Source of the DNA: an uncultured Planctomycetota bacterium
GTDB lineage: Bacteria; Planctomycetota; Planctomycetia; Isosphaerales; Isosphaeraceae
Assembly (NCBI GenBank): GCA_963737655.1
Contig: CAVTTN010000002.1
Coordinates: forward strand, 7,136,001 to 7,200,000
Length of the DNA stretch: 64,000 bases
Direction of reading: 5' to 3'
Shown: positions 3,401 through 25,771 of the stretch, in pieces
Layout of the letters: every line of letters starts with the position of its first letter
Position numbering within the stretch: position 1 is the first letter of the stretch
The notes under the pieces: model-generated
What the model saw: only the letters and a program-made list of their open reading frames with translations
Told to the model about the DNA's origin: nothing
Database searches by the model: none
Program-made: the position numbers and the translations under genes

Positions 3401-3594
3401 CAGAGGGGATCGGCCGGGTCGGGCCAGAGCGAAGCACAGATCACGGCCCGGCAAGCCGCCAGGGGCCGCCGAGCCCACCAGATATGAAGGGTCGAGATAT
3501 GGCCATGCCGGATCGACTTCTCGCGCCGGGCGTGGGCGCTGATCCGCCGGATGGGGAGATCGACCTCGATCAGGCGCTTGGGGTAGACGGGCAT
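417..3594 (-). pseudogene. DUF1156-domain adenine-specific DNA methyltransferase, broken by nonsense codons and frameshifts
   Basis: N-terminus MPVYPKRLIEVDLPI...RHGHISTLHIWWARRPLAACRA (DUF1156), motif I DPFAGGSIPLEA, motif IV FVTDPPHYDAVPY, C-terminus WPIDTEM...LASSVHLVCRPR. Split over ORFs 2842-3705, 2260-2784, 1880-2263, 1691-1876 and 417-1559. In-frame TAG at 2842-2844 and TAA at 1880-1882. Confidence 0.88.
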
Positions 3595-3746
3595 GGTGGA
3601 CAAAATTCCGGGAAACACGATGACGAATGTGTCGATCGCCGAAACGCAAACCCTTTCCGCCGAACAACCTTTGCTTCCCGAGTCTAATCCTAACGGCGGG
3701 TTCATGGCGATGGCGATTCGCCGTGAGAAGCGCCGTTAGCCCGCGG

Positions 3747-3977
3747 TTAGAAGCGTTTTCTCTCTTGTCTGCCAGGACATAGGACGTCCAGCGGCCTCGC
3801 GCCAGTCACGGCCCCGTCGTCCTCGATGCCGATCGGGAGATGTCCGCTCGAGGAATTCGCCAGGGCCACGACTTCCTCGTCGATCTCCTGATAAGTCAAA
3901 CGGCCGCGGTCCGACTGGAACTCGCATTCGAGCGATTCCCCCGCGGCGATCGCCCGGGCGAGTTGAGGAGCCTCCAT
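3747..3977 (-). pseudogene. AlbA_2 (Schlafen-like) DNA-binding protein remnant, internally deleted
   Basis: MEAPQLARAIAAGESLECEFQSDRGRLTYQEIDEEVVALANSSSGHLPIGIEDDGAVTG matches the AlbA_2 pattern (E-F-K ... A-x-A-N ... GxxDDG). Its start overlaps the helicase stop (TGATG). It joins directly to a C-terminal-like RWTSYVL segment. Confidence 0.7.
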
Positions 3978-6758: not shown

Positions 6759-8294
6759 GGAAGCGGCTCGTCGTCGTGCCCCACGATGCGCCTCCAACCA
6801 AGCGTCGGGCAGGAGCTCGCCGAGCGCCTTCCAGGGATGCGTCGGCAGCCGTTCCAGGACGTCGTTGAAGTAGGCGAACGGATCAATTTGGTGACGCTTG
6901 CCACTGGCCACAAAGCTGTACAACGTCGCCGCCGTCCGGCCACCTCGGTCGCTCCCGACGACCAGGTAGTTCTTGCGCCCGATGGCTTGAGCACGCAGAC
7001 CCCGCTCCGACACGTTGTTGTCGATGCTCAACTCGCCGTCGCGGGTGTAGGTCTGGAGATCGTCCCACTGATTTCGCGCATAAGACATCGCTTGACCGAC
7101 CGGACTCTTGGGCAGAATTCTTCGACTCTGCTCGTCCAACCATTCACCGAACGCTTTCAAAAGTGGGACCGCATCCCGTTGTCGGAGCGCACGGCGTTCT
7201 TCGGCCGCGAGATCGACACACGCCCTCTCGATCTCGTAGAGTTGCCCGATCCGAGCCAGTACTTGGTGAGCCGGTAACGGAGCGGTGTGCCGGGCGTCGT
7301 AGAACTTGCGAGGGACGTGAGCCCAGCAGGCCACGCGAATCACGTCCGCCCCGGCGCGGAGCCGATCGTACCCGGCGAAGGCCTCGGCCTGGAGATGACC
7401 CGAAAAGCCTTCGAGGAACCGTTCGGGACCGTCGCGGGTGTGACGCGGCGTGAAGTCGTACACGCAATAGGGATTCCCGGCGTCGCCGAGATAGACCCAG
7501 AACCGCCCGGTCGGCGTCCTCGGGAGCGTCGGGTCCCAGACCGGAACCGTGGCGTCATCGGTCCAGATGATCCGCGAGCCACGGACTCGCCTGATCATCA
7601 GGTTGTAGGGCGGTGTGAACAACTCGGCGGATTGGGCCAGCCAGCCGAAGAGCATACTCCGCGAGATCGTCACGCCGTGATGCGCCAGGATCTGCTACTG
7701 GCGGTAGAGCGGCAGATGGTAGGCGAACTTGTTGGTGTTCACGTGGGCCAGGAGACCCGGGCCGGCCAACCCCTTGTCGATCGGCTGAGGTGGTTTGGAC
7801 GGAATCGCGACATGCTCCTGGCACGATCGGCAAGCGTACTTGCGACGGATGAATAGCGAGGCCGGGACGTAGTCCAACTGCTCGGAGATTTCGTCGTCGA
7901 AGTGGGCGCGAAGCCCGCCGCAACCCGGGCAGGCCCGCTCCCGCTCGGTGGGTTCGATGACGACCGGCACGCGAGGCAGATGCTCGGGGAGCGTCTGCCG
8001 ACCGCGACGCTTCCAGGTGCGCTTCGGCTTCTCGGGACCTTCGGGCTCGGCGTCGGCGTCGGCGTCTTGCGGCGAGGCTGACTCGTCGCCCTCGTCGGTG
8101 AAGAGCCGTAACAGGTTCGGATCGAGGCGCTCGCTGCGCGGGCCCTACTTCTGACGCAGCAGGACAACCATCGCGTGTTCGAGCTTCTCGATCCGCCGCT
8201 GAGCCCTGTCGAGGGAGTCCACCTGCTGGCGGATCAACTCATGACAGAGGGCCAAGTCGTTGGGGAGTTCAACCTCGGCGTCATTTATGCGCAT
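6759..8294 (-). mobile_element. tnpC: IS66-family TnpC transposase pseudogene
   Basis: Coiled-coil N-terminus then (Y>TAG)GPRSERL, zinc finger CPGCGG..YACRSC, KFAYHLPLYRQ, CWAHVPRKF, IDNNVSERGLR..AIGRKNYL, DPFAYFNDVL. In-frame stops at 8145-8147 and 7695-7697. Confidence 0.9.
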
Positions 8295-10512: not shown

Positions 10513-10529
10513 GTGGAAGCCGCTTCCAC
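10513..10529. repeat. 17-bp palindrome, A-type, GTGGAAGCCGCTTCCAC
   Basis: Perfect 8-1-8 inverted repeat, intergenic; one member of a dispersed family. Confidence 0.9.
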
Positions 10530-10549
10530 CCGCGACGCGCCCGGCGACC

Positions 10550-10900
10550 TCAGACCCCGAGCCGGTCGAGCTCGCGGTCTGAGGTCGCCGCCAGGGCCCT
10601 CGCGCGGCCGGCGGCCGAGTGTCGGGGCGGGGCGGCCTCGCCGGCCTCCGCCGCCTTGACGTCCTCGAAGAACCGGTACAGGCCGGCCAACGTCACGCAC
10701 CGGGTCCCGCCGACATGAACGTAATCCAGCTTACCGCCGCAAGATCCGTTCATTCATCGATAGATCGTGGCGACGTGGGGCGGCCGGCCGCCGCGGCGGC
10801 GGGGCAAGTACCGGCACGCCTGCGCCGGCGTCATCAGGTCGTGCGGCCCCGGCACGGGGCGGTCGGCTCGGGGGAGGTCGGCGGGCTCGTCGATGCTCAT
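10550..10900 (-). pseudogene. DUF1580 domain protein (excisionase/AlpA-like HTH of planctomycete integrative elements), Trp codon replaced by TGA
   Basis: LMTPAQACRYLPRRRGGRPPHVATIYR*MNGSCGGKLDYVHVGGTRCVTLAGLYRFF...DRELDRLGV. TGA at 10754-10756 sits where the conserved W is expected. Confidence 0.75.
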
Positions 10901-11141
10901 CGTGCGAGTACCTCATCGGGTCGGGGTCGCGAGCGGGGTCCGATCGCCCCGATCCCCGGCCACGGCCCCCATCTTCGGGCCTCTCGCCGGGGCCGGGCAG
11001 AGGACGCGATCGGCCACGGACCCATGCGACGAGCCAGGCGGGCCCGGCCCCGCGGCCGTCCGGTGGGGCGTCCCCCGCGGGTCTGGACCCTGCGCTTCCC
11101 GCCGCCTCGGTCCCCGGCGGAACGCGCCTTCGAACCCTGGC

Positions 11142-11158
11142 GGGGACGCGGCGTCCAC
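11142..11158. repeat. 17-bp palindrome, C-type variant, GGGGACGCGGCGTCCAC
   Basis: One mismatch to GTGGACGC-S-GCGTCCAC. Confidence 0.7.
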
Positions 11159-11230
11159 GCTCCGCGGCGAGGGGGGAACCTTCGGGGGCCGATGCAATCC
11201 GGGGCGATCCCTGCCCGCTCCGCGGGGGCC

Positions 11231-12448
11231 TCAGCGAGCCACCGCGCGACGCATCGGCTGGCGGCGTCCGTAGGTCAGCGACCTCCACGCCCATTCCGCC
11301 GGCCCGAACCGATACCTCCTCAGCCACGCGGAGCTGAAGGCCAGTTGGCCCGCGTAGAGGGCCAGCCCCACGAGTGCCGCGGGGGCCGATCCGAGGTGGC
11401 CGGACCACCCCAGCCCGTATCCGTAGAAGATCAGGCCCAGGGCCAGCGACTGGGCCAGGTAGTTCGTCAGGGCCATCCGGCCCACCGCCGCCACCGCCGA
11501 GACCAGGGGCCGTCCCCTCGATCCGCGCCCGGCCAGGAGCAGGATCGAGGCGTAAGCCAGGGCCAGTGGAAGGGAGGAAGCGGCGTCCAGCAGCCGACCG
11601 GGCACCGGGGACGGACTCCCCGTGGAGGCCGAGGCGACATGCAACGCCGTCGCCGACCCTCCCACGACACCCCCCGCGATGGCGACCACCCAGAGCAGGC
11701 CCCGATGGCCCGGCGGGTCGCGGACAACCCCGGCCCTCCAGGAGGCCAGGCCCAGCAGCATCACGCCGAGGGTCCTGGGCAGGACGCCCAGCAGCAGCGG
11801 GATGATCAACTGCCGAGTCTCGGCCCGGTGGAATGCGAGGACCTCCGCATAGCTGCCCCGAGCGTACACGCCCCTCGCCTCGGCGGCCATCGACCTCAGG
11901 GCGTCCTCGTCGGGGATCGCGGGGCCGAGATCGACCACCCACGGGAGGGCCGCGGCGACGACGCCGGCGACCACCTGGGCCGCCACCGGCAGCCGCAGCA
12001 CCGGCAGCAGCAGGAGGCCGCAGGCCGCATAGAGCGTGAGGATGTCGCCGTTCCAGACCAGCAGCATGTGGGCCAGGCCGATCCCCAGGAGGACCGCGAG
12101 CCGCCTCGCCAGGAGGAGGCGGGCGCCGGCCCCCCGGGCCGCGGCCCTCTTGTCGAAGCCGCCCAGGCCGGCGCCGAACAGGAGGGAGAAGAGGGTGATG
12201 GCCTTGAATTCCAGGAACGCGGCGACGAGCACGTCGACGAGGCGGTCGAGGTGTCCGGTCGCGGTGTGGAAGCGGAGGAGGTGCTCGGCCAGGGGGATCC
12301 GGAAGTCGCTCAGGAGGTTCACCAGGAGGACGCCGAGCAGCGCGACGCCGCGGAGGACGTCCAGGGCCTCGATCCGGTCCGCCCCCTCGACGGGCCGCAA
12401 GGGGCCGTCCCCCTCGCCGGCCCCGGCCGCCCCACGATCCTCCGTCAT
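11231..12448 (-). CDS. DUF418 (YeiB-like) inner-membrane protein
   Basis: RIEALDVLRGVALLGVLLVN, KAITLFSLLFGAG, GDILTLYA, GRMALTNYLAQS, FGPAEWAWRSLTYG. Confidence 0.9.
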   Translation of the reverse strand: MTEDRGAAGAGEGDGPLRPVEGADRIEALDVLRGVALLGVLLVNLLSDFRIPLAEHLLRFHTATGHLDRLVDVLVAAFLEFKAITLFSLLFGAGLGGFDKRAAARGAGARLLLARRLAVLLGIGLAHMLLVWNGDILTLYAACGLLLLPVLRLPVAAQVVAGVVAAALPWVVDLGPAIPDEDALRSMAAEARGVYARGSYAEVLAFHRAETRQLIIPLLLGVLPRTLGVMLLGLASWRAGVVRDPPGHRGLLWVVAIAGGVVGGSATALHVASASTGSPSPVPGRLLDAASSLPLALAYASILLLAGRGSRGRPLVSAVAAVGRMALTNYLAQSLALGLIFYGYGLGWSGHLGSAPAALVGLALYAGQLAFSSAWLRRYRFGPAEWAWRSLTYGRRQPMRRAVAR

Positions 12449-12602
12449 TCGCAGACCTCCGCTCTGCGGGACCGGCACGCCCTCACGGGCCGTCGCCCCG
12501 TTATACTGGCCGGGGAGACCGGGGCCCAACGTCCGGCGCCCGGGACGGCCGGATTCGAGCACGGCCATGAGAGGCCGTCGGGCCTCCCGGAGGAGGACCC
12601 GC

Positions 12603-13514
12603 TTGCCGACGCGACGCGACAGCCCCGACACCGGACGGGTCGCCGTGGCCTGGGCCGTGATGTTCGGCGGCCTCGTCGGCTTCTGGGGCCTGCGATCCCG
12701 GCTGGACGACCGGGCCTTCGGTTATGGGCAGGTCGCCGTCCTGCTCACGACCTGGAAGGTCGCCTCCCTCGTCCTGCTCCCGCCCCGGTCGTGGCGGAGG
12801 TTCACGCCCCTGCGCTTCCTCGCCTACCTGGTCTGGCCCGGGATGCAGCCCCGGCAATTCCTGGTCGGGGCGAGCGTCCCTCCCGGCGCCCCGATCCCGA
12901 CCCTCCGCGACTTCCTCCTCAACGTCCTGGTCGGGGCAGCCCTGTTCCTGCTGGCGAGATGGGGACTGCCGGCCGGGACGCCCCGCGCGGTCCGCTTCTG
13001 GGTCGCCCTGATCGGCTTCGTGACGCTGTTCCTCGTCGCGCGGCTGGACCTCTGGGCCCTGGTCTTCCGGAGGATGGGCTTCGCGGTCGAGAAGCTCTGG
13101 GACGGCCCGATCGCCGCCACCGGCCTGGGGGACTTCTGGGGCCGGCGATGGAATCGGATCGTCTCGGGGTTCCTCCGCGAGGCGGCCTTCGTCCCGCTGT
13201 CCCGCCGCGCCGGGCCGCGGGTGGCGTTGCTGGGCGTATTCCTCTACAGCGGCCTGTACCACGAGATGGCCAGCGTCCAGGCCCGCTCGGGCTACGGCGG
13301 GCCGATGCTCTACTTCCTGGTGCAATACCTCGGGGTCGCGGCCGAGGCCAGTCGCCCCGGGCGTCTCCTCCTGCGAGGCCGGCCGTGGCTGGGGCGGGCC
13401 TGGACGCTGGCCGTGGTCGTCGCGCCGCTGGGCCTGCTGCTGCGTCCGGGGTTCGTCGACGGCTACCTGGTGCCCCTCCTGGAGAGGGCGGGCGTGCCGG
13501 GGCTCCGCGGATAG
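12603..13514 (+). CDS. Membrane-bound O-acyltransferase (wax synthase/MBOAT_2-like)
   Basis: Multiple TM segments, DFWGRRWN and SGLYHE (catalytic His). AGGAGG precedes TTG 12603; alternative start ATG 12567. Confidence 0.8.
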   Translation: MPTRRDSPDTGRVAVAWAVMFGGLVGFWGLRSRLDDRAFGYGQVAVLLTTWKVASLVLLPPRSWRRFTPLRFLAYLVWPGMQPRQFLVGASVPPGAPIPTLRDFLLNVLVGAALFLLARWGLPAGTPRAVRFWVALIGFVTLFLVARLDLWALVFRRMGFAVEKLWDGPIAATGLGDFWGRRWNRIVSGFLREAAFVPLSRRAGPRVALLGVFLYSGLYHEMASVQARSGYGGPMLYFLVQYLGVAAEASRPGRLLLRGRPWLGRAWTLAVVVAPLGLLLRPGFVDGYLVPLLERAGVPGLRG

Positions 13515-13889
13515 GCGGCGACCGATCCCATCGGAACCCCGGAACGCCCGGCGGCCGGACGCCGCGCCCACCCGCGACCCGGCGTGCTCGTCGCGGGCCA
13601 CAGACCGGCCCCGGCTGCGGTGAGGGCGGCGAGGCAGCGGCCCCATCGACGCCGGGGCCCAGGCCGCTTGACCTCGGGCTCGACGCGGGAAGGGGACCAG
13701 CCCTCGCGGAGCCGTGCCTCCGGGTCCCTCATCACCGGGGCCACCTCGGGTGCCGCGCGGGATCGCCCGAACGGCGCGACCCCGCGGCACCGCTCCCGGG
13801 CCTCTCCCTCGTGCCGGTCGGACGGCAGCGGCTCGGCCAGGTACACCTCGTCGGACCTCGGCCGGTCCGCCACAACCGCTGGCCCGGGG

Positions 13890-13906
13890 GTGGAAGCGGC
13901 TTCCAC
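13890..13906. repeat. 17-bp palindrome, A-type, GTGGAAGCGGCTTCCAC
   Basis: Perfect palindrome with GC-rich complementary flanks. Confidence 0.9.
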
Positions 13907-14001
13907 CCCGGGGGAGTGGGAACAGGACCGGGAAGGGCATCCGGCCTGGCCCGCTCCGGGTCATTCGGACATGCAAGTGGGGCGAAAAACGCCCGATGTC
14001 G

Positions 14002-14018
14002 GTGGGCGCCGCGTCCAC
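14002..14018. repeat. 17-bp palindrome, C-type variant, GTGGGCGCCGCGTCCAC
   Basis: One mismatch; starts 112 bp after the A-type copy. Confidence 0.7.
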
Positions 14019-14196
14019 GGCCCCTTCGACCGGGCCTCCCTGCCCGACCCTCGCCGCACGGCCCGCAGAGGCCCCGGACCGTCGGCCCCGCACCCGCCGC
14101 ACGACCGTCGCCCAGGCTGGGCAGCCCCTGGGACCGCGGTCACGTCGGCCCGTCGGCGTGGTGCCCGACGCCCACGGCCTCCCGACCGTCGCGGGC

Positions 14197-14379
14197 CTAA
14201 GGGGCCGCGACCTCGGGACAGGCCGGATCGTGCCGGCGAGACGGGGGCGACTCCCCCCCGGGGGTGCAGACCTCGCACCCGAACGGCAGCCTCACGACCG
14301 GCCCGCCCTTCAGCCTGGACCGCGACTGTCGATGCATCGTGACCTGGCGGCAAACGCGGCAATATCTCCTGGCCAGCAT
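14197..14379 (-). CDS. Putative 60-aa zinc-ribbon protein
   Basis: GAGGGAG RBS, then MLARRYCRVCRQVTMHRQ...FGCEVCTPG with two CxxC motifs. Confidence 0.35.
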   Translation of the reverse strand: MLARRYCRVCRQVTMHRQSRSRLKGGPVVRLPFGCEVCTPGGESPPSRRHDPACPEVAAP

Positions 14380-14850
14380 CGCTCCCTCCGATTTTTGATC
14401 ATCTTCGCCTCGGCGTCGTCCAGGCACGCTCCCGCCCCTCATCGCGGCCCGAAGGACGTCGGGACGGCGACGAGGGAGGCGGTCGCTCGCGTCTCCTGGC
14501 GGATCGGAGTCGAGACTACCGGCACCCGGCCTGCCCCGGGAGTGGAGCGGCCCCGGTCCCTCGCACGAATCGCGAAGGGCGGGGCCGCCCCGGCACCGGC
14601 GCCCGAGGGCGCCCGCGAGAACGCCGCGTCGGGCACGCCGCGTCGCCCCGGCGATCGGGGCCCCGGGTATCGAGGGGGACGGCACATCATACATGAAAAA
14701 TGCACACATCATGAATATAACAGGGTGAGTCGTGCGACGAGCCGTCGACGACCCGAGGAACTCGGGGAGGAGCCTCCGGGCCGGGGGATGCCGGCCGGCG
14801 TCGTGGTCGCGCCCCGGCCGCTCGGGCCGTGCCCCGGGGGGACAACGGGC

Positions 14851-14867
14851 GTGGACGCCGCGTCCAC
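14851..14867. repeat. 17-bp palindrome, C-type, GTGGACGCCGCGTCCAC
   Basis: Perfect palindrome upstream of the Prim-Pol gene. Confidence 0.9.
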
Positions 14868-14963
14868 GGCGACGAGGTCGGCCGGACCGCAAAGGGGTCG
14901 GCGGGGGCTGCCCCGCCACTGTTCGCGAAGGGCGGAATCGCCTGAAAATAACGAGGCCCCGGA

Positions 14964-16715
14964 GTGGCGATCCCGGGGCCTCGCATCGAGATCCTCGGTC
15001 GTCGCTGGCCTGGCGACCTAGGAGTGCTGACTACGCTACATGAGAGCGTCGCCGTGCGTGAATATCTTATCGGAATCACGACCGGGATCCCAGAGACGGT
15101 TGCCCCGCGGCACCGGGACCTGCCCGTTGCGCCGCCGCTCCTGGAGAGCATGAGACAGGTCACGCGGCATGGCCTCCGCATCTTCCCGGTCACCCACACC
15201 ACGAAGAGGCCGATGGGGGCGGGCTGGCAAGCTGCCGCCACGTCGTCCCCGGAGGTCCTGGTGGGCTGGATGCAAGCCAACCGCCCGGGCCGGCGCTGCC
15301 GCTCCTACCTGGTCCGCACGGGCGTCCCGATGCCCGACGGCCGCTACTTGATCGGTTTCGACGTCGACCCCCGGTCGGGAGGCCGCGAGAGCCTGGGGCG
15401 ACTCCTGGCCCTCCACGGCCTGACCCCGGACGACCTGCCCCCGACCCTCACGGTCCGCACCGGCGGCCATCCCGAAGGCAGGCACTATTATTACGGGTCT
15501 AGGGTCCCGTGGAAGGGCGTCAGCCCCATCCCCGGCTTCCCGGGCCTCGACCTGAAGGCCGACAGGGGCTACCTCATCGGCCCCGGTTCGCTCCATGATT
15601 CCGGCCGGACCTACGAGTTGATCCGGGGCTTCGACGAGGGGGTCGCGGACCTGCCCGAATGGCTGACGAGCACGCTGGAGGGGGCGGGCGAAAAGCACGA
15701 GGAGTCGGCACGGCGCGACCCGGGCCGCCGTGCCGGTCAAGCCGCCGGCACGCCCCAGGATGCCCGCTGGACGCCGGGCGTCCGCCCCGAGGCCATCCGG
15801 GGTGATGACGTCCCCGACGCCCCTGCGAGCGGGCCGCAGTCCCCCAGGGAGGCCGCACCGAGGGCGACCCCGGCCCGGGCCGCCTGCACCCGCCGGGCCG
15901 ACCCGGCGGCCCTGGCCGAGGAGATCGACCGCCGCTACCCGATCGAGGCCATCCACACCCGGCACAACGTCGAGCTCCGGGCCATCGCGTCCCTGCTCGG
16001 CCGCGGGTAATGCCCCGAGGACACGCTCGCGGCGGTGGCGATCCGAGAGACCCGGGCCGGGCCCTGGGCCTCCTCGGATCGTCGCCCGCCGCGGCCGAGG
16101 CCGACGCCCTGCGGATCGCCGAGGACTGCCTGAACGATCCGCACTTCGTCGTCGGCAGGCCCGGGGGCCGGTCCGCCGTCCCGAGCAAGACGAAGGGGGA
16201 CCACCGGGACGGTGCCGCAGGGGTCGCCATCCCCGCCTCCGTTTGCATGATCATTCGATCATCAATCATGGGGGCCGCGGCGCCCGAGGGGGGGAACGAA
16301 TCATCAAATAGACCCGGGTTAAAACCGGTTCACCACCGCTACCGGCTCGACAAGCGTCTTGCTGATCGTCCAGTCCCTGGTCCAGCACCTTGTTTACCTG
16401 CGGAGGGAAGGGCTGTGGTCGCGCGGGCGGACGTTCGCGACCACCGACGCGGAGCTCGTCACGCTGGCCACGCGGCTCGACCCGTCCGTGGCCTGGGATG
16501 AGGGCGGCTCCGACTTGCTCGCCGTGAAGCAGGACCTGATCGATCGCTTCGACTCGGGCCCGGCCCGCCGGCACGCCTTCGCCCGCGAGGTCGTGCGGGG
16601 CGACCGCCGGGCCGGCGAGGCGGTGGGCCGGCCGTCGGAGTACGAGCCGACCGGCCTGCTGGATCTCCTCGCCGCCTACGACACCGAGGTCGCCGCGGAG
16701 GCCCGCCGGGTATGA
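14964..16715 (+). pseudogene. Bifunctional DNA primase/polymerase (Prim-Pol, AEP) replication protein; C-terminal part broken
   Basis: GLRIFPV..TKRP..GWQAAAT, LIGFDVDPRSGG (DxD), TLTVRTGG..GRHYYY, GLDLKADRGYLIGPGSLH. TAA at 16008-16010, then frameshifted fragments to 16715. Start uncertain (14964-15150). Confidence 0.8.
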
Positions 16716-16737
16716 GCAGGGCGGCAGTCCGGCCGGG

Positions 16738-16754
16738 GTGGAAGCCGCTTCCAC
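16738..16754. repeat. 17-bp palindrome, A-type, GTGGAAGCCGCTTCCAC
   Basis: Perfect; the palindrome extends to CCGGG/CCCGG flanks (16733-16759), just after the rep gene. Confidence 0.9.
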
Positions 16755-16770
16755 CCCGGACCCCGCCGGG

Positions 16771-17019
16771 TCACTCGCCCCGGGCTTTCCGCTCGGCCTC
16801 GCGGCGGTGGAACTCGACGAGGAGCCGGCCGGCCTCGGCGTCCTCCTCGGGGGTGAAGTCGAGCTCCTCGGCGAGGACCCGGCCGTCGGCGTCCCGGAAC
16901 CGGCCGTCGGGTCCCTCGGCGTAGCGGCCTTCGAAGCGTTCGCGGCGGTCGTCCCGTCGCTGCGGATCGTGCACGGCCCACCCCCGGATTATCGGCGGAG
17001 GTCGCATCCCCGGATTCAT
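16771..17019 (-). CDS. Small hypothetical protein
   Basis: Charged ORF ...GRFRDADGRVLAEELDFTPEEDAEAGRLLVEFHRRE with GC3-rich codons; start uncertain. Confidence 0.3.
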   Translation of the reverse strand: MNPGMRPPPIIRGWAVHDPQRRDDRRERFEGRYAEGPDGRFRDADGRVLAEELDFTPEEDAEAGRLLVEFHRREAERKARGE

Positions 17020-17565
17020 TATCGAGTGGAAGCGGCGACCTCCACGAGCCTCCGGCGGCGCGATCGTTTCGATGTCCGCGCCGCCCCTCGGGGACGCCGG
17101 ATCGTGGAGTGGGACGGCCTAGCGGCGACCTGTAACGATCCCGAGGGCCGGAAGCGGGACTACGCCATCAGCTTCGGGCTCGGGGCCTTCAACGACGAGG
17201 TCGACGCGATCCTGGCCCGCGTCAAGCCGGCCAATCCGGGGGAGCTCGTCCAGGAGGTCCGGGACGTCTTCACGCGGGCCGATCACGACGGCGAGGTCTT
17301 CAAGGACGCCCGGACGAGAGCGCCCATGCGAAGGGACATCGACGGGCCTCGGGGCTGAATTGACGGGCGCTCGCCCGAGCACACGGATGCGCCCGGGACT
17401 TTCGATCCGCCCGGGGTTTGCGGGCCCATTCGGGGTCTTGGTAGACTCGTCGCGCCCGGCCGCTAGGCCCCGGCCGCGGCGGCCACAGGCGAGGCGACGG
17501 TGCCCGGTCCTGGTCCGAGTGCGGGCGGCTCCTCGGTCGAGGCGGCCGAGAAATCGCCCGCCTCG

Positions 17566-17594
17566 GCGTGAGTTTCCCGCGCCTTCGCCGTCTT
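17566..17594 (+). promoter_or_regulatory. Putative ECF-sigma promoter (GTGAG ... CGTCTT) upstream of the sigma gene
   Basis: GCGTGAGTTTCCCGCGCCTTCGCCGTCTT is 24/29 identical to the sequence at 21458-21486. Confidence 0.65.
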
Positions 17595-17612
17595 CTTCGA
17601 ATAGGAAGGGAC

Positions 17613-18173
17613 ATGGACCGCGACGACGGCATCGGGCCCCGGCCGATCGAGGCGTTCCGCGAGTACCTCCGGCTCCTGGCCCGGTTGCAGATCGGCCCGG
17701 ACCGCCGCTCGGCCGTCGATCCCTCCGACGTCGTCCAGCAGACGCTCCTGCGGGCCCATGAGAGGCGAAACCAGTTCCGGGGGACGACCGATGCCGAGCG
17801 CGAAGCCTGGCTCCGCGCGATCCTCGCCAGCCAGATCGCCGACGCCCTGCGCCGTCCCGAGCGTCGGGGAGGAGGCCGGCTCGTCTCTCTGGAGGCGGCT
17901 CTGCACGAGTCGTCGGCGCGGCTGGACGCCTGGCTCGCCTCCGAGCAATCCAGCCCGAGCGTGCGGGCCATGAGGGCCGAGCGGCTGGTCGAGCTTGCCG
18001 ACGCGCTCGCGACGCTGCCGGAGGATCAGAGGGAGGCCGTCGAGCTGAGGCACCTGAAGGGGCTCTCGGTGCCCGCGGTGGCCGAGGCGATGGGCCGCAC
18101 GACGGTCTCGGTGACGGGCCTTCTCTATCGGGGGAGCAAGGCGTTGCGGGAGAAGCTCGGCGGCGAACGGTGA
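17613..18173 (+). CDS. ECF RNA polymerase sigma-70 factor, planctomycete-specific subfamily
   Basis: YLRLLARLQI..VDPSDVVQQTLLRAH..FRGTT..AWLRAIL; region 4 LPEDQREAVELRHLKGLSVPAVAEAMGRT. Confidence 0.92.
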   Translation: MDRDDGIGPRPIEAFREYLRLLARLQIGPDRRSAVDPSDVVQQTLLRAHERRNQFRGTTDAEREAWLRAILASQIADALRRPERRGGGRLVSLEAALHESSARLDAWLASEQSSPSVRAMRAERLVELADALATLPEDQREAVELRHLKGLSVPAVAEAMGRTTVSVTGLLYRGSKALREKLGGER

Positions 18174-18191
18174 ACCGAGGCAGGGTGGGAC

Positions 18192-21100
18192 ATGGCCGAT
18201 CGGATTGACGTCTAGGCGAGGGGCGACCGCGAGGAGCGGCTGATCGCGATCATCGCGCAGTACTACGAGGCCGTCGAGTCCGGCGCGGCGCCGGATCGCC
18301 GAGCCGTGCTCGACGCCCATCCAGACCTCGCCGCCGAGATCGACGAGTTCCTCGTCGAGCAGGACCGCCTGCACCTCCTGGCCGAACCCTTGAGGCCCCT
18401 CGCGGAGTCGGCGGGGCTCACCGAGCCGGACGACGCGACCGCGCCCCTCGGCCCCTCGGGGTCGGCCGACCCCGGCCCGGACACCCTGGACGGGGACGGC
18501 GCGACTCCCCATCGGCCCGGGGGGCGCGTCCCCTACTTCGGCGATTACGAGCTGCGCCGCGAGGTCGGCCGGGGCGGCATGGGCGTCGTCTACGAGGCCC
18601 GCCAGGTCAGCCTCAATCGGGTCGTCGCGCTCAAGATGCTCCTGGCCGGTGCCCTCGCGGGCGAGGACGACCGCCGACGCTTCCGCGCCGAGGCCGAGGC
18701 CGTCGCGGCGCTCGACCACCCGAACATCGTGCCGATCTACGAGGTCGGCTCCCACCGGGGCGATTCCTATTTCAGCATGAAGGCGATCGACGGCGGCACG
18801 CTCGCCTCTCGCCTCGACGAGTTCGCGGGCCATCCGCGAGAGGCCGCCCGGGTGGTGGCGACCGTCGCGAGGGCCGTCCACCACGCCCATCAGCGCGGCG
18901 TCTTGCACCGCGATCTGAAGCCCTCGAACGTCCTCCTCGACGAGAATGGCGAGCCGCACGTCACCGACTTCGGCCTGGCGCGTCGCGTCGATGGGGGCGG
19001 CGACCTGACGCAGACCGGCGCGATCCTCGGGACGCCGAGCTACATGGCCCCCGAGCAGGCCACCGGGCGGCGGGGAGCCATCACCACGGCGACCGACGTC
19101 CACGGACTGGGGGCGATCCTCTACGCCCTGCTGGCCGGGAAGCCCCCCTTCGGCGGCGACTCGGTCCTGGAGACGCTCGACGAGGTCCGAGGGCAGCCCC
19201 CGAAGCCGCTCGGCCCGGGGATCGACCGCGACCTGGGGACGATCTGCCGGAAGTGCCTGGAGAAAGAGCCGGCGGCGCGGTGTGCCTCGGCCCTCGACGT
19301 GGCCGAAGACCTGGAGCGCTGGCTCCGGGGCGAGCCGATCGCCGCCCGTCCCGCCGGCCGGGCGGAGCGGCTCTGGCGCTGGTGCCGCCGGCATCGGGTC
19401 GCCCTGATCACGACGCTCCTGATCGCGTCGTCGCTGGTCACAGGCACGGTGATGAGCGTCCGGCAGGCGCGCCGCGCCCGACGCGCCGAAGCCGCCGCGG
19501 TCGGCCAGCGCGACCGGGCGCGGAAGTCGGTCGATGACATGTACACGCAGGTGGCGGAGAAATGGCTCTCGCAGGATCCCGATCTGGACCCCCTCCAGAG
19601 GGAATTCCTCCTCAAGGCCCTGGCGTATTACGAGGAGTTCTCCCGCGAGGGGGCGCCGAGCGCCTCGGAGCTGGAGGAAAAGGCCTCCGCCGAGCAGCGC
19701 GTCGGGGACATCCAGAGGAAGCTGGGGGCGCTGGACGAGGCGGAGCGGGCCTATCGCTCGGCCGTCGCGATCCAGGGAGAACTCCGGGACCGATCCCCCA
19801 GGTCGCCCTTCGACCGGACTCGCCTCGCGGGAGGGCTGACCGGCCTCGGCGAGCTGCTGCGAGCCGAGGGACGGACGGATGAGGCGGAGCGCGTCATGCG
19901 CAACGCCCTGGAGCTGAACGAGGCGGTCGCGGCCGAGTTCCCCGACGTCCCTCGATATCGGACCTATCTGGCCAGGAGCTACACCCGACTCGCCCTCCTC
20001 TTCCGCGAGACGGGCCGGTGGAAAGCGGCCGAGGAGGCGGACACGCGGAGTATCGCGCTGCTCGAGGCGCTCGCCGCCGAGGGGCCCGAGGATGCCGAGG
20101 ACCGCGGCGCCCTCGCCTCCAGCTACGCGAACCTCGGCGTCCTCCTCTCCCAGACGGGGCGCGCCACGGAGGCCGAACAGGTCTGGGGTCGGGTCGTCCG
20201 TCTTTATGAGGCCCTCCTGCCCGAATCGCCGAAGGACGGCGCGGTGCGGTCGGGCCTGGCGCTGGGGAACAACAACCTCGGCGTGCTGCTGTACGGAGAG
20301 GGGCGGCTCGAGGAGGCGGCCGAGGCCCTGGGTCGGGCCGCCGAGCTGCAAGAGGGGCTCGCGGCCGACTCCCCCGGGGCGCCGCAGTATCTCAAGGGCG
20401 TCGCCGATTCCCGCTCGAACCTCGCCCTGGTGCTCCTCGCCCTGAAACGCCCGGAGGAGGCGGAGGAGGCCTTCCGCCGCGCCATCAAGCACTATGAAGC
20501 GCTCGCGACCCGATGGCCCGACGTCCGCGACCATCGGAGCGGCCTCGGGGCCGCACTGAACAACCTGGCGGTCCTCCTCCAAGAGCGGGGCGAGGCGCGG
20601 GAGTCCGCGGATCTGTACCGTCTCGCCATCGAGCAACAGGGCGCCGCGTCGCGGGCCAACCCGCGGAACCCGACGTACCTCGCATTCTTGAGGAACCATT
20701 TCGACGGCCTGTCCCAGTCCCTCCTTCAGCTCGGCGATCACGCGGGAGCGGCGGAGGCGAGCGAGGAACTGGCACGGATCTCGCCCCGGGGGCTGCCGGA
20801 CCTCCTGCTCGCCGCGACCCGCATCGCGCAATGTCGCCGCCGAGCGGAGTCGGACCCGGGGCTTTCGCCGAGCCGGAGGCGCGACGCCGCCCGGGCCCAC
20901 CTGGAGCGATCCCGGGAGCTGTGCGAGAAGGCGGCCCTCGCCGCGAAGGACGACCCCGACGCCCTGAACAACGTCTCCTGGTTCCTGGCGACCTGCCCGG
21001 AGCCCGATCTCCGCGACCCGGCCCGCGCGGTCGAGCTTGCCCGAAAGGCCGTGGAGCGGGCTCCGCAAAACGGCGAGTGCTGGAACACGAAGGGAGCGGC

Positions 21101-21389
21101 CGAGTACCGCGCCGGGCATTGGGACGAAGCGATCTCGGCCCTCTCGCGGTCGATGGAGCTCTCCTCGGGCGGATCGCCGGCCGACTGGATCTTCCTCGCC
21201 ATGACGCATCGGCGGAAGGGGAACGACGGCGAGGCGCGGTCGTGGTTCGCGAAGGCGAGTGCCTGGATGGATCGGAATCGATCGACCGATGAGGATCTGA
21301 TCCGCCTGCGCGACGAGGCCGCGGCCCTCCTGGGCCCGTCGGACGGGGATCGCGCGATGCCCGCCGGCCCGGACGCCTTCGCCCGATGA
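18192..21389 (+). CDS. Ser/Thr protein kinase with a TM-like segment and TPR repeats; in-frame TAG at codon 8
   Basis: GRGGMGVVY, VALKM, HRDLKPSN, DFGLA, GTPSYMAPE, then many TPRs. ATG 18192 is in frame with ORF 18306-21389, with TAG at 18213-18215. Confidence 0.9.
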
Positions 21390-21457
21390 TGGGTGTGACG
21401 TCCGGGGCCGCCGCGAGTGATCCGGGAGCGTCCGGGGACCGGCCTCGAAGAATTCTC

Positions 21458-21486
21458 GCGTGAGTTTTTCGAGCCTCCGGCGTCTT
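21458..21486 (+). promoter_or_regulatory. Second copy of the putative ECF promoter, upstream of the secreted beta-propeller gene
   Basis: GCGTGAGTTTTTCGAGCCTCCGGCGTCTT, with the same spacing as 17566-17594. Confidence 0.65.
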
Positions 21487-21594
21487 GAAACCTGTCGCGG
21501 CGGGCGGAACGGGCGCGGCGTCGGCGAAGACGCCGTGATGAGGCCCGTTCGCCACAGCCGCGCCCCGATGCCCCATCCCCCGGAGACCCCGACG

Positions 21595-23276
21595 ATGTTC
21601 CGCCGCCTCCTCCATCCGTCCGCGTTCCGCCGCGCCCTGCCCGCCCGAGTCGCCTCGCACGCCCCCCCCGGACGGACCCGGGCGCGGCCGCGGCTCGAGG
21701 GGCTCGAAGGGCGGTGCCTGCTCTCGGGGATCTCGGGCACGGCGCAGTATCCCATCCCGATCGGCAGCTCCGTTTACATCACGGGAGGGCCCGGCGGCAA
21801 CCTCTGGTTCACCGATCAGCAGACCAACGGCACCTGCTATGTTGGCACCATCAATTCCGCGACCCGCGCCATCAGCGAGTATCCCATCCCCACGACCAAT
21901 TGCTATCCGAGGGAGATCACGACCGGCCCAGATGGAAACATCTACTTCACCGAATTCGGGGCCAACAAACTCGGGAGGATCAACCCGACGACCCACGCCA
22001 TCACGGAATTCAGCATCCCGGCCGACTCCCAACCCTGGGGCATCGTTACCGGCCCGGACGGGAACCTCTGGTTTGCCGAGAGGGGTGGGAACTCCACGAC
22101 GGGCAGCGCGATCGATTCCTTCAATCCGACGACGCACGTTTTCAGCTCGTATGCCACGTACCTCGGCAACGGGAACTATCTCGGCGTCGGGCCGACAGGG
22201 CTCACGACCGGCATCGACGGCAACCTCTGGTTCACGACCTACGACGGCGCCGTCGGCAGCATCAACCCGACGACGCACGTGATCCAGGAATATCCCATCC
22301 CGACCAGCGGGGCCACATCCTATGACATCGCCACGGGTCCCGATGGCAATCTCTGGTTCACCATGCCCTCTGCCAACCCGGGGTCCGAGGGACAGCAGGT
22401 CGTCTCATTCAATCCGAACACGCAGGCCTTCTATCCCATCGCCGTCCCCGGCGGGGGCGAACCTTACGGGATCACGACCGGCCCCGACGGCAACCTGTGG
22501 TTCGCCGAGGCCGGAACCGGCCAGGTCGGCCGGATCAACCCGACGACCGACGCCCTCACCCAGTTCCCGATTTCGGCCGGCCGGGGGATCACGACTGGCC
22601 CCGACGGCAACCTTTGGCTCGCCTCCGGCTCGACCATCACCGTCGCGACGCCGGGCCAGTCCGAAACCGACCTGGTGGTCACGCAGCAACCACCATCCAG
22701 CGTCACCGCGGGGGCCGGCTTCGGCTTGACGGTCGCCGCCGAAGACGGCTCGGGGGACGTCGTCACGTCGTTCAACGGCACGGTCACCCTGTCGCTCGGC
22801 AACAACCCCGGCGGCGACACTCTCGGAGGGACGACGGTCAACGCCGTCAACGGCGTGGCGACCTTCTCCGGGCTGTTGCTGACGAAGAGCGACCCGGGTT
22901 ATGCGCTCGTGGCCTCGGCGGGCCTCGACGGCGAGGGCGTCACCGGCGCGTTCGCCGTGACCCCGGCGGCGGCCTCGCAGGTCGTGGTTACGCAGCAGCC
23001 TCCTTCGAGCGTCTCGACGAACTCGGCGTTCACCGTCATCGCGGCGATCGAGGACCAGTACGGCAATATCGTGACCTCGGCCAACGGCGCCGTGACGATC
23101 GCCATCGGCACGAATCCGGGGGCTCCACGCTCGGAGGGACCACGACGGTCTCGGCCGTGGACGGTGTCGTGACGTTCTCGAACCTGACTCTGAACAAGAA
23201 GGGCAAGGGCTACACCCTGAAGCTCTCGTCGGCGGGGCTCCTCGGCACCACGACCTCGGCGTTCAAGGTCGGCTGA
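21595..23276 (+). CDS. Secreted Vgb (virginiamycin B lyase)-like beta-propeller with C-terminal Ig-like domains and an N-terminal LEPR-XLL-type motif; frameshift near 23120
   Basis: RPRLEGLEGRCLLS; seven ITTGPDGNLWF-type repeats; LVVTQQPPSSV Ig repeats. The C-terminus continues in another frame to TGA 23276. Confidence 0.85.
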
Positions 23277-23780
23277 GGCCTGGGCCGCCCGCCACACCGG
23301 TCTGCGACACCCCCGGGCGGAGGGGAGTCGTGGGTCGCGGCGGCCGGCCCTGCCAGCCGGCGGAGGGACGCGTCGGTCCGCCATACCGAACGTTGCAAAC
23401 AATCGAGGGCCGGTACGACTTTCTGGCGATCGGCGTGACCGACTCCGGGGCCTGGGCTCCGTCGGGCGCCCGTACGGCGGGGGCCGCCGGGCGGAGGTAC
23501 GGCAGCGGACGCATGCGTCCGATCGAACCGGCCCGCCGGTCCGTCCCGCCATGCGGTCCCGTGCGATCGGCGCGGCCTCCTCGGCGGAGTCCCTGACGGC
23601 CTCGACGTCGGGAGCCTCGGCGCACGGCCCCGGGCCGGGTGCCGGCCGGTAACGATGGCGAAGGGTCGGGGAGGGCCGGCCGCCAGGCGGCGATCGGCCG
23701 GCGGGGCCGAGGCCCGGGGGACCGATGGGCCAGGCCTCCCCCGCCCCGACCCGACCCGACCCGACCAGGGACGCGGCGGT

Positions 23781-23797
23781 GTAGACTCCGCGTCCAC
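23781..23797. repeat. 17-bp palindrome, degenerate C-type, GTAGACTCCGCGTCCAC
   Basis: Two mismatches to the C-type consensus. Confidence 0.5.
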
Positions 23798-24484
23798 CGA
23801 TCCCTACCGGGTCCTCCTGATGAGGGGGATCAAGGGATGTTTCTGAGCTCGACGGACGCCGAGACCCGGATGTACCTGGCGGACCTGCTCGGCGGGAGGG
23901 CCTGAGATCGATCGCGGGCCAGATGACGAGGGACTGCCCTCCGCGATGTGGACTTCACCTCCACGACTACCGGAAGACTACCGGGTCGGACGGCGGGATA
24001 CCGCGATTCCTCGCGATTTTTCGCTCCGGTAGGAGGACGCTTGCGAATCCGGTCCGGTCTGGCAAGATGATTTTGGGCAACGGTTTACGAGGCTTTCCCC
24101 CGTCGCCCTCGGCCGCAAGTCACGCCGCGGTGGTCGTGGGTCACGGCGAGCGAGGGGCGACGGTCGGCGTGCGCGGGGCAGAGGCCCTCGTGCTGGGGCC
24201 GGCCGTCGCAGCCTACGGCCGCCCGCCGGAACCTCCGGTCACCGACCTCATGCGCCGATCGGAGCCGCTCGAACGCCTGGCGGCCCGCCGCCTCATCGCC
24301 ATGGGCGTGGGCTTCCTCGCCGCCGCCGGTCGCGAAGCGGGGCCGCCCCGAGCTTCGGGCCCGCGGCCACGGATGGCAAGCCGGGTGCGGGGCCCGGTCC
24401 TGCCGGGCGTCGATCGCCGGTGCCTCGGAGAAGCAGCGGCCCGAGGGCCTCCGCCCCGCGTCCCGGAGCAGCGCCGGGATCGGG

Positions 24485-24501
24485 GTGGAAGCGGCTTCCA
24501 C
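24485..24501. repeat. 17-bp palindrome, A-type, GTGGAAGCGGCTTCCAC
   Basis: Perfect palindrome downstream of the integrase. Confidence 0.9.
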
Positions 24502-24627
24502 TCCGCGGCTGGTCGACGCCCCTGGGAACCCTTGGCGGAGGTGGTCGTGGGACTTCCGACCCGGGCGTGGGCGGGCCGAACCGCGTTCGAGATCAAGCAT
24601 GAGCACTCGACATTCGGCCGCGACGGG

Positions 24628-24644
24628 GTGGACGCCGCGTCCAC
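24628..24644. repeat. 17-bp palindrome, C-type, GTGGACGCCGCGTCCAC
   Basis: Perfect; starts 143 bp after the A-type copy, about 50 bp from the integrase stop. Confidence 0.9.
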
Positions 24645-24693: not shown

Positions 24694-25589
24694 TCAGCCG
24701 ACCTGGCCCATGACGGCGATGGCCTTCTGCCGATCGGCCTCGGCATAGATTTCGGTCGTCAGGGCCGAGGCGTGGCCGAGGACGACCCGCGCGACCTCGA
24801 TCCCGTATTCCTTGCGGAGCCGGGTCGCGGCCGAGTGCCTGAGCTGAGGGGGGTGCCATGGCGCGACCCCGGCCTTCTTGCACCCATAGCGGACCGCGTG
24901 GAGGTAGGTCCGTGGGACGTAGCGTTCCTCGGGGGGGCGGCCCGGGGCCTTCCGGGACCGGTCCTTCTGGGAGGGCGGGACGGGGGTCTTGCGGGCCGCC
25001 CGCTTCCGCTCCTGGCGTTCGGCCACCGCCTCGCGACCCGCGCCCTCCTCGACGGTGGCGCGGGCCGTCGGCGCGCCTGGTGGACTGAGGGCGGGACCAT
25101 CTCCTCGGCCACGGCCCACTTGAACAGCCGCACGATCCGCCCGACCCTCGGGTTGACCTGGTTGCGGCACAGGCCCGAGTCGACCATCGCCTGGCGGACC
25201 GCCTTCAGGGCCAGCGGGCCGAACGCGGTGGCGGCGGTCTGGTCGTAGAGGCGGCGAAGCGGGCGGAGGGAGAGCTTGATGTTGTCGAGCTCGTGGGAAC
25301 TCCGGCCGGCAACGGGGTAGTGCCGTCCCGCGAATTCGAGGTAGGCGACGAGTAGCTCGGACACGGTCAAGGCCGGCGGCGCGGGATCCCCTCCGAGGGT
25401 CCGGGCGTCTCGGGGTGCGTCCCGGCGGCCGTGGGCGAGCCACTCGGACACGAGGCGATCGTACTCGGCACGGCTGTCCGGGGAGCCGTACCTGCCGAGG
25501 TAGCGGTCGCGACCGGAGAGGGTCACGACGGCCTGGCCGGAGGGCCTGTGGAGGCGGTAGGAGGGGGTGCGGGGCGAGCGGGCGGGCAC
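24694..25589 (-). pseudogene. Tyrosine integrase (planctomycete phage-integrase type) with internal deletion and frameshift
   Basis: N-terminal PSYRLHRPSGQAVVTLSGRDRYLG; C-terminal HPPQLRHSAAT, VLGH, TTEIYAE. The box containing the first catalytic Arg is absent; junction at about 25030-25080. Confidence 0.88.
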
Positions 25590-25697
25590 GGCGGGCCGCC
25601 AATCCGGTCGTCTACCGGAATTCTTGGAGGCTTTCGGCCGCGCGATCCCGCCGGGGATCGGTACACAAGTGTGGCGTTCGGCGGGGTCCGTATTGAG

Positions 25698-25771
25698 GGT
25701 GCCTGACGGGATTCGAACCCGCGATCCCCAGATCCACAATCTGGTGCGTTAACCGCTACGCCACAGGCACC
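25698..25771 (-). tRNA. tRNA-His (GUG) with G-1; CCA not encoded
   Basis: GGTGCCTGTGGCGTAGCGGTTAACGCACCAGATTGTGGATCTGGGGATCGCGGGTTCGAATCCCGTCAGGCACC folds into a cloverleaf with anticodon GTG. Confidence 0.97.

Follow-up and report, generated by a model that had tools for sequence, protein, structure and literature searches.

A dispersed palindrome of tRNA-integrated islands in a planctomycete genome and its candidate ParB-like reader

The stretch analysed here (the window, 64,000 nucleotides of contig CAVTTN010000002.1 from an uncultured Planctomycetota bacterium of the Isosphaeraceae) carries part of an integrative island in which copies of a 17-bp palindrome, GTGGAMGC-S-GCKTCCAC, are dispersed between and within genes. 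Judging from sequence comparison, we consider this palindrome likely to be the binding or loading site of an orphan ParB-like protein encoded by the islands, with the P0001 family as the candidate. The palindrome is restricted to islands, the candidate has a ParB/Noc/KorB-like fold with a helix-turn-helix (HTH), one copy lies inside such a gene, and recognition helix and site covary among homologues. The feature is real, and it would be a variant of the ParB-family site systems.

Copies of the palindrome and their symmetry

All nine copies listed in an earlier note on this DNA were recovered, with the same positions and mismatch counts. The A-type is exact at 10513..10529 (20 bp behind the stop of a DUF1580-like HTH remnant), 13890..13906, 16738..16754 (between convergent small open reading frames (ORFs), 22 and 16 bp past their stops) and 24485..24501. 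The C-type is exact at 14851..14867, upstream of a Prim-Pol gene, and at 24628..24644; it has one mismatch at 11142..11158, the left border of the DUF418/MBOAT cargo, and at 14002..14018, and two at 23781..23797. The spacings of 112 and 143 bp in the two A-then-C pairs were reproduced. The list was incomplete, as two degenerate copies at homologous positions had been overlooked: a C-type site with three mismatches at 13555..13571 (homologous to C2:2609584, on the right border of the DUF418/MBOAT block) and a site with four mismatches at 23948..23964. Nor do all copies lie outside genes as had been claimed, since 13890 sits in frame within a decayed ParB-like gene.

With up to three mismatches, the window holds 14 matches against 1.9 expected, a number reached by none of 100 shuffles. 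Two of the 2-mismatch matches, 11574 (inside DUF418) and 17026, are probably due to chance. The scarcity of copies in the remainder of the window also held: past 25.8 kb there are just two 3-mismatch matches (54408 and 61835), which is the chance level.

The A/C change is indeed symmetric, with both arms agreeing in 22 of 23 de-duplicated sites (P ~5e-6; 4 of 27 sites were removed as near-duplicates for the symmetry tests). The single A/C hybrid is at C2:7127288, C2 being the contig that holds the islands. Site-specific symmetry weakens beyond the core (P 0.014 at positions 1-3, none further out), and an outer GG flank accompanies 14/19 A halves vs 4/27 C halves. These differing flanks indicate that A and C are two separate lineages copied as units and not a compensated hairpin pair.

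This bears on the idea that the copies are hairpins of the repetitive extragenic palindromic (REP) or terminator kind, acting as single-strand structures with A and C as a compensatory pair. The arm agreement would fit, several copies lie 11-50 bp past stop codons, and the genome has 8 matches to Y1 transposases, one of them in the island at tRNA-His. Against it stand the fading symmetry and the separate flank lineages. Furthermore, none of the 27 sites has a T-rich tail or is among the 7 terminator-like matches of our scan, the conserved 5' tetranucleotide to be expected of a REP/RAYT pair is lacking, none occurring in more than 7/54 flanks, and the copies are island-only. The Y1 (RAYT-like) gene, at the far end of the His island (C2:7093166-7093642), is 21 kb from the nearest site and has repeats of its own, unrelated to the motif. 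In a scan against Rfam the sole match was tRNA, with no family on the palindrome. We regard hairpins as a very improbable explanation.

Distribution in the genome and in the islands

All 21 exact copies in the genome, and all 27 with at most one mismatch, lie inside four tRNA-integrated islands that make up 2.5% of contig C2, while a second-order Markov model predicts 0.012 exact copies genome-wide. The enrichment in such islands that the earlier note had suggested testing is total in the genome scan, and the motif is not an ordinary genome-wide REP. Outside this genome it is scarce. None of 40 relatives' genomes has an exact copy, and 4/400 genomes of the class have 1-2 copies each, all 5 inside called ORFs. 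A wider scan of contigs found at least 118 stretches with an exact motif, and the 80 listed each hold a single copy. Single exact copies were also found in 3 + 11 viral loci, with no match to a ParB or to the C-terminal domain described below within 10 kb of those 14 copies. The motif is private to this genome among the genomes and loci searched. One viral C-type copy (L442:5479) lies amid short direct repeats in the linker of an apparent phage replication-initiator gene; this is probably an iteron region matching by chance.

tRNA-Asp, -Arg, -Gly and -His mark the starts of the four islands, which measure 7, 47, 67 and 72 kb, respectively; at the other end of each island the 3' part of the tRNA is repeated. 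They are mosaics of tandem, partly decayed elements, which carry a tyrosine integrase, an AlpA-like HTH gene, a primase or Prim-Pol, plus cargo such as an extracytoplasmic function (ECF) sigma factor with a kinase, CRISPR-Cas and insertion sequence pieces. Gene calls come from a home-made dicodon model, so gene starts are approximate.

Many sites occupy four recurring homologous positions, m1 to m4. Position m1 immediately follows the integrase, m2 precedes the primase by about 190 bp, and m3 and m4 are about 165 bp apart near the element end. In the window m1 is the C-type site at 24628, 49 bp past the integrase stop, where the Arg and Gly islands have the A-type; m2 is the site at 24485, upstream of a primase remnant; m4 is 23781, part of a conserved end module; and m3 is the degenerate site at 23948, homologous to exact copies in sibling islands. 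The A and C types swap at orthologous positions m1, m2 and m4.

The recurrence of these positions, together with a 4.3-kb block (primase, then P0001) that is common to the Arg and Gly islands and 99.8% identical, could mean that the copies have no function and simply arose as a few backbone segments were duplicated again and again among tandem elements. Seven copies, including 14002, 14851 and 16738 of the window, have no flank homology to any other copy on either side, and perfect cores are kept where the flanks are just 70-85% alike. Both observations speak against mere duplication, which we think most unlikely.

The earlier note had offered another possibility, recombination sites that delimit cargo. 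The copies would bound exchangeable modules in the manner of an integron or shufflon, with A and C as incompatible overlap variants. Classes of half-flanks do reassort in places, three different left flanks being found joined to class c1. Some homologies end at sites, most cleanly between window 13890 and C2:2609249, where one flank is 94% alike and the opposite flank is unrelated. The DUF418/MBOAT block is bordered by sites. In a breakpoint comparison, from which CRISPR, kinase/TPR and other repetitive regions were left out, homology ended within 30 bp of a site in 12/110 cases vs 5% expected. The remaining 98 ends lie elsewhere, however, and the 12 amount to about five distinct junctions. 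The Arg-island locus that lacks the DUF418/MBOAT block retains 11 extra bases, so that this crossover was not at the centre of a site. Besides, the interchange of A and C at orthologous positions argues against recombination sites, and the three island integrases, whose best scores are 19.8 bits against a cut-off of 265 (TIGR02249) and 24.9 bits against one of 435 (NF011946), are not integron integrases. In a prophage of another genome (G247:C3, see below) equivalent palindromes are found in the gaps that separate capsid, portal and tail-region genes, and three ORFs contain one in frame. With so few ends at sites and an imprecise DUF418/MBOAT junction, the comparison went against the claim, and recombination sites are quite improbable. 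The borders at sites would instead be occasional short-homology crossovers.

The candidate protein and its remnants

The earlier note saw no ParB gene. A ParB-like remnant does exist in the window, and the search for a co-occurring ParB or HTH gene led to an intact one in two sibling islands. P0001 is a protein of 340 aa encoded by two identical gene copies, C2:2612022-2613044 and 5914819-5915841, in the Arg and Gly islands. It comprises a ParB N-terminal domain, an HTH, a linker and a C-terminal tail with four cysteines. P0001 matches the ParB-like PHROG 1033 (E 1.7e-16), and its structure model (pLDDT 82.5) has Noc, ParB and KorB as top Foldseek matches, with E ~1e-6 to 1e-5. Searched alone against Pfam PF02195, P0001 falls below the threshold; the profile of its family places QxR at Box I and DGFHR at Box II of ParB, and matched the ParB of M. 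xanthus (E 1.5e-9). Among the nucleotide motifs, G84-x-x-R87 and R45 are kept and Q43 of Box I is replaced by Ser. Nucleotide specificity of ParB-CTPase-fold homologues is described as not predictable (PMC12704722). As such homologues bind CTP, ATP or GTP (PMC12704722), the nucleotide of P0001 is uncertain.

Degenerate copies of the motif occur about 200 bp before the P0001 gene and in its linker. Two decayed paralogues have a perfect or 1-mismatch A-type copy at the linker position of P0001, in the same frame, and one of these is window 13890. The window remnant (13694..13906, minus strand) covers the end of the linker and the start of the C-terminal domain, and was recognised from tblastn, DNA identity and frame. 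Its tblastn match to P0001 (37.5% over 64 aa, E 0.068 genome-wide) is weak alone. At the DNA level it shares 93% identity over 373 bp with the remnant in the Arg island, where the start of the ParB N-terminus is still present; this homology ends at site 13890.

The four-cysteine C-terminal domain, of about 110 aa, is found in 985 protein clusters. Within the class it is limited to the host's family (21/98 genomes of the family vs 0/302 others), and no Pfam family exceeded its cut-off for this domain in 54 scanned proteins. The domain (P0087-P0235) is undescribed, and appears joined either to ParB-N/HTH or to DUF3102-like N-termini. A search of the ESM Atlas gave no usable match.

As for partition, none of the 10 matches to ParA (PF01656) in the genome lies inside the four islands, and P0001 also lacks a ParA-binding motif. 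With no ParA or IncC in the islands, classical partition is unlikely. The parS/KorB-type reading of the earlier note thus stands in part: the sites are island-restricted and a ParB-family protein is their most likely reader, whereas the partition role falls away. The suggestion of a cognate protein acting in trans gained support, the P0001 gene being intact only in two sibling islands.

The host's own parAB is located at C2:6558476-6559568, with canonical parS-like sites nearby that differ from the motif. A single-copy chromosomal paralogue of the host at C2:7307953 and two other PF02195 matches were considered as readers and dropped, having no motif copy of at least 12 bits nearby. This paralogue (C2:7307953-7308834) belongs to the phage-type ParB clade and lacks the four-cysteine tail; 109/121 genomes of the family have a match to it, and it is a domesticated orphan ParB.

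In-gene palindromes and recognition helices of viral homologues

The motif is assigned to the ParB-like family mainly because of two results from viral homologues, helix-site covariation and near-matching homologue sites. The set comprises 80 loci of the ParB clade, of which 35 are de-duplicated loci where a pattern located the HTH. A perfect palindrome with arms of at least 8 bp is present in the 90 nt behind the HTH in 17/35 genes, vs 0/139 control windows taken from those ORFs. As a family rule, these genes bear a palindrome of their own, and it co-varies with the recognition helix. Among the 26/55 rows with a clear 17-bp site, similarity of the recognition helix predicts similarity of the site (partial Mantel r -0.55 with N-domain similarity removed; 0/5000 permutations).

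The relation extends to our motif. Nearness of the helix to that of P0001 predicts nearness of the site to the motif (Spearman -0.49, P 0.011), and the control regions, helix 2 and the N-domain, are not significant. The in-gene palindromes of phage ParB homologues match the motif in 14/16 arm bases. Loci L374 and L394, whose helices are similar to that of P0001, have sites one change per half away from the A-type, and shuffled half-sites equal that in 1.3% of cases. The system is not special to planctomycete islands, as had been proposed, and is instead part of a wide phage family.

Dispersed palindrome families in other genomes

Genome G247 has a different palindrome with the same habit. All 30 copies (28 exact and 2 with one mismatch) are within three element clusters; a ParB-like gene contains one of them in frame, and a second ParB-like gene is preceded by one at 33 bp. 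A prophage on its contig C3, with genes for a major capsid protein, a Rad52-like protein and a Prim-Pol, contains 18 exact copies over about 51 kb. Of these, 11 are within 20 nt past a stop codon and 3 are in frame in linkers, including that of the prophage's own ParB-like gene. In-gene and dispersed copies were also found together in G100:C24, G024:C5, G247:C6 and G247 at 5.09 Mb; in the last two the gene joins the C-terminal domain to a non-ParB N-terminus.

The comparison of G100:C24 with C38 concerns the part of the protein that reads the site. Their C-terminal domains are 98% identical, yet their HTH regions (18 of 32) and palindromes differ. The four-cysteine domain, a candidate binder, is ruled out by this pair, which points to the HTH, not the tail, as the source of specificity.

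At G247 C1 ~977.3 kb (L339, near 2320) one dispersed site is directly followed by a tandem of three other ParB-type palindromes, one of which is almost the same as the palindrome within the gene at viral locus L404. This array may serve as a decoy or may gather operators of other phages.

Families of at least 3 copies in at most 20 kb occur in 6/29 loci with the C-terminal domain vs 2/47 loci with an integrase and no ParB-like gene (Fisher P 0.048). The latter proportion is that of core DNA, where 2/40 chunks have such a family. This is relevant to the possibility that another protein of the element binds the palindrome (a DUF1580/AlpA-like excision factor, an accessory factor of the integrase or an origin factor of the primase), the link to ParB being incidental. 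In favour of such a protein, sites precede primase and Prim-Pol, m1 follows the integrase, and m3 adjoins two 11-bp direct repeats in five element ends (23965..23986 in the window, plus strand), repeats that would be integrase arm-type sites. In G387, G002 and G020, however, the corresponding arm region keeps the repeats and lacks the palindrome. Apart from the core-like rate at integrase loci, this alternative leaves the in-gene copy and the match to phage ParB self-sites unexplained, and we judge it unlikely.

Points that weigh against a ParB-like reader

Several observations do not sit easily with P0001 as the reader. The Gln of Box I that P0001 has replaced by Ser is present in 49/52 family rows, its linker copy has 3 mismatches, and the position behind its HTH carries a weak GC-rich palindrome unlike the motif. 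Taken together these suggest that the true cognate may be a lost, now decayed paralogue. The assembly is 88% complete, so a further ParB-like copy could be missing from it. The two linked site types need explaining for one protein sequence. On the comparative side, kin in the helix-site test are not independent, and L365 and L409, two of the five nearest helices to P0001, have sites 8-9 changes off. Three of the six multi-copy loci with the C-terminal domain come from one genome. Dispersal is a minority state, with at least 2 further copies in 2/58 viral loci vs 3/279 control windows. Lastly, no sigma-70-like promoter was found near the sites in 9.0-25.8 kb, so regulatory targets rest on position only.

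Proposed mode of action

If an orphan ParB-like protein is the reader, a dimer would contact the two 8-bp halves with its HTHs, close as a nucleotide-gated clamp and then slide, by analogy with ParB, KorB and BisD (PMC13768133, PMC12409273). The His and Asp islands would be reached in trans by such a clamp. The two types, A and C, would represent separate lineages of sites, each site being copied whole, and the repeats would occasionally serve as short-homology crossover points, giving module borders at some sites. Many of the window copies may be relics by now.

The mode of action is probably similar to that of KorB or BisD. Given binding, and with no ParA in the islands, the task would on balance most likely be long-range control in the style of KorB, directed at the primase, Prim-Pol, ParB and excision region of the element itself. 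A role in tethering the excised circle or in organising it is less likely than control, and rather doubtful.

We also put forward, tentatively, a broader view. The orphan ParB-like genes of phages and integrative elements may be self-addressing modules, with recognition helix and operator in one gene, so that specificity would travel as a unit. Some elements might copy the site to tens of tolerated places, such as behind stops and in linkers. Here, one protein would address four islands through two site lineages, with copies doubling as module crossover points.

Comparison with known systems

One of the closest comparisons is KorB and its operator OB on the IncP plasmid RK2. As described in PMC11790492 and PMC13768133, KorB also has a CTPase-type N-domain, an HTH, a linker and a C-terminal domain, and OB, an odd-centred palindrome, is scattered along the element, its distance to genes varying. 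The likeness of the palindrome to the operator, noted earlier, holds for the central 7 bp of the A-type and not for the outer arms, with 9/17 bases shared with the OB oligo (PMC11790492); the sites of L374 and L394 are much closer to the motif. KorB structures were among the Foldseek matches of P0001. Unlike KorB, the islands lack IncC/ParA and P0001 lacks the ParA-binding motif; the tail of P0001 is a four-cysteine domain without a Pfam family, and a site is inside the gene itself. No KorA or TrbA was seen among 55 island proteins scanned against Pfam, a scan not aimed at them. The host element is a tRNA-integrated island, whereas RK2 is a conjugative plasmid.

The four inverted repeats (IRs) of N15 are dispersed. 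SopB of N15 with IR1-4 (PMC7205306) and chromosomal ParB-parS are alike in having palindromic ParB-family sites, which for N15 are on a prophage. They work with SopA or ParA, unlike the protein of the islands.

BisD of ICEclc with its bisS sites, as reported in PMC12409273, is likewise a ParB-like protein from an integrated element; it is loaded at palindromes on that element and influences genes far from them. BisD has two sites, carries an activator domain and cooperates with BisC in acting on transfer genes, whereas here there are at least 27 sites in four islands. The C-terminal domain is different, and there are no conjugation genes among the island proteins scanned. Cluster A mycobacteriophage stoperators (PMC9283540), at least 20 repressor sites across a temperate element, lie in short intergenic gaps like those of the sites in the G247:C3 prophage. 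According to that paper, stoperators are 13-mers that lack symmetry, follow the direction of transcription and are recognised by a repressor that is monomeric and not a ParB; ours are palindromes.

P0001 falls in the divergent ParA-less mobile-element group of orphan ParB-CTPase-fold proteins from prophages and plasmids, PHROG 1033 (PMC12704722). The main text of that paper names no DNA sites ('palindrom' occurs 0 times), and it describes neither in-gene sites nor a code linking helix and site. Elsewhere, TIGR-TasA operons are noted to include a parB-like gene, with no sites given (PMC12045711), and HerB is described as a further orphan ParB-like regulator (PMC13370423). In the literature covered (main texts, few of them from subscription journals), neither the in-gene palindromes of orphan phage ParB genes nor this system in planctomycete elements is described.

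Orphan ParB-fold proteins are reported to be common on prophages, with almost no DNA targets or roles known (PMC12704722). Sequence here yields a candidate for the target and one for the protein, as well as a covariation of helix and site across the family, which makes the role of orphan ParBs testable. If the protein acts in trans, decayed and non-autonomous islands would still be addressed by a sibling's clamp. Helix-site pairs could supply orthogonal labels in the style of ParB/parS; and if the genes are self-addressing, natural helix-site pairs would amount to a protein-DNA code that can be read, and would provide a supply of orthogonal pairs of clamp and site.

Other features of the window and the islands

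An AlpA/DUF1580-like HTH gene with an in-frame TGA is found at 10550..10900 on the minus strand. The DUF1580 label given earlier was not reached in Pfam at E 0.01; its support is a weak match, at 25% identity across 59 aa, to a DUF1580 protein from an element related to this one. The Prim-Pol gene (PF09250; 15150..16055, plus strand) is truncated. The primase remnant at 24115..24297 (minus strand) is the 5' part; it resembles, at 84% aa identity, the beginning of the intact primase encoded ahead of the ParB-like gene in sibling islands. The tyrosine integrase gene (24694..25589, minus strand) has an internal deletion and a frame change. The integration site is tRNA-His at 25697..25770 (minus strand), whose 3' part is repeated at C2 ~7089956-7090001, giving the island a size of about 72 kb.

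In the same island, positions 420-6800 of the window contain genes for DUF1156, an SNF2/NOV_C helicase and DUF499, a fragmented cluster of the defence type. Elements of different tRNA sites are stacked within the His island (C2:7113127-7114492 and 7132323-7132475): a second integrase element with the 3' half of tRNA-Gly, and an Arg-type element end copy with the 3' half of another tRNA.

The 7-kb tRNA-Asp island (L001, C2:1941177-1948323) has no called integrase. Its ECF sigma and 1761-aa kinase-like genes are flanked by two copies of the end module, and it looks like a non-autonomous element. Cargo of the Arg island includes a Cas8b CRISPR-Cas system behind a WYL regulator (C2:2618679-2635730), and that of the Gly island a second cas operon with an array (C2:5957621-5970400), named from sequence features.

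Finally, related integrases (L192-L222) have a variable palindrome about 40-80 bp before the start in at least 11/33 loci. As in these loci, a palindrome region lies just upstream of the integrase start codon in the window (25590-25620), and this variable palindrome is possibly involved in integrase autoregulation or is an arm site.

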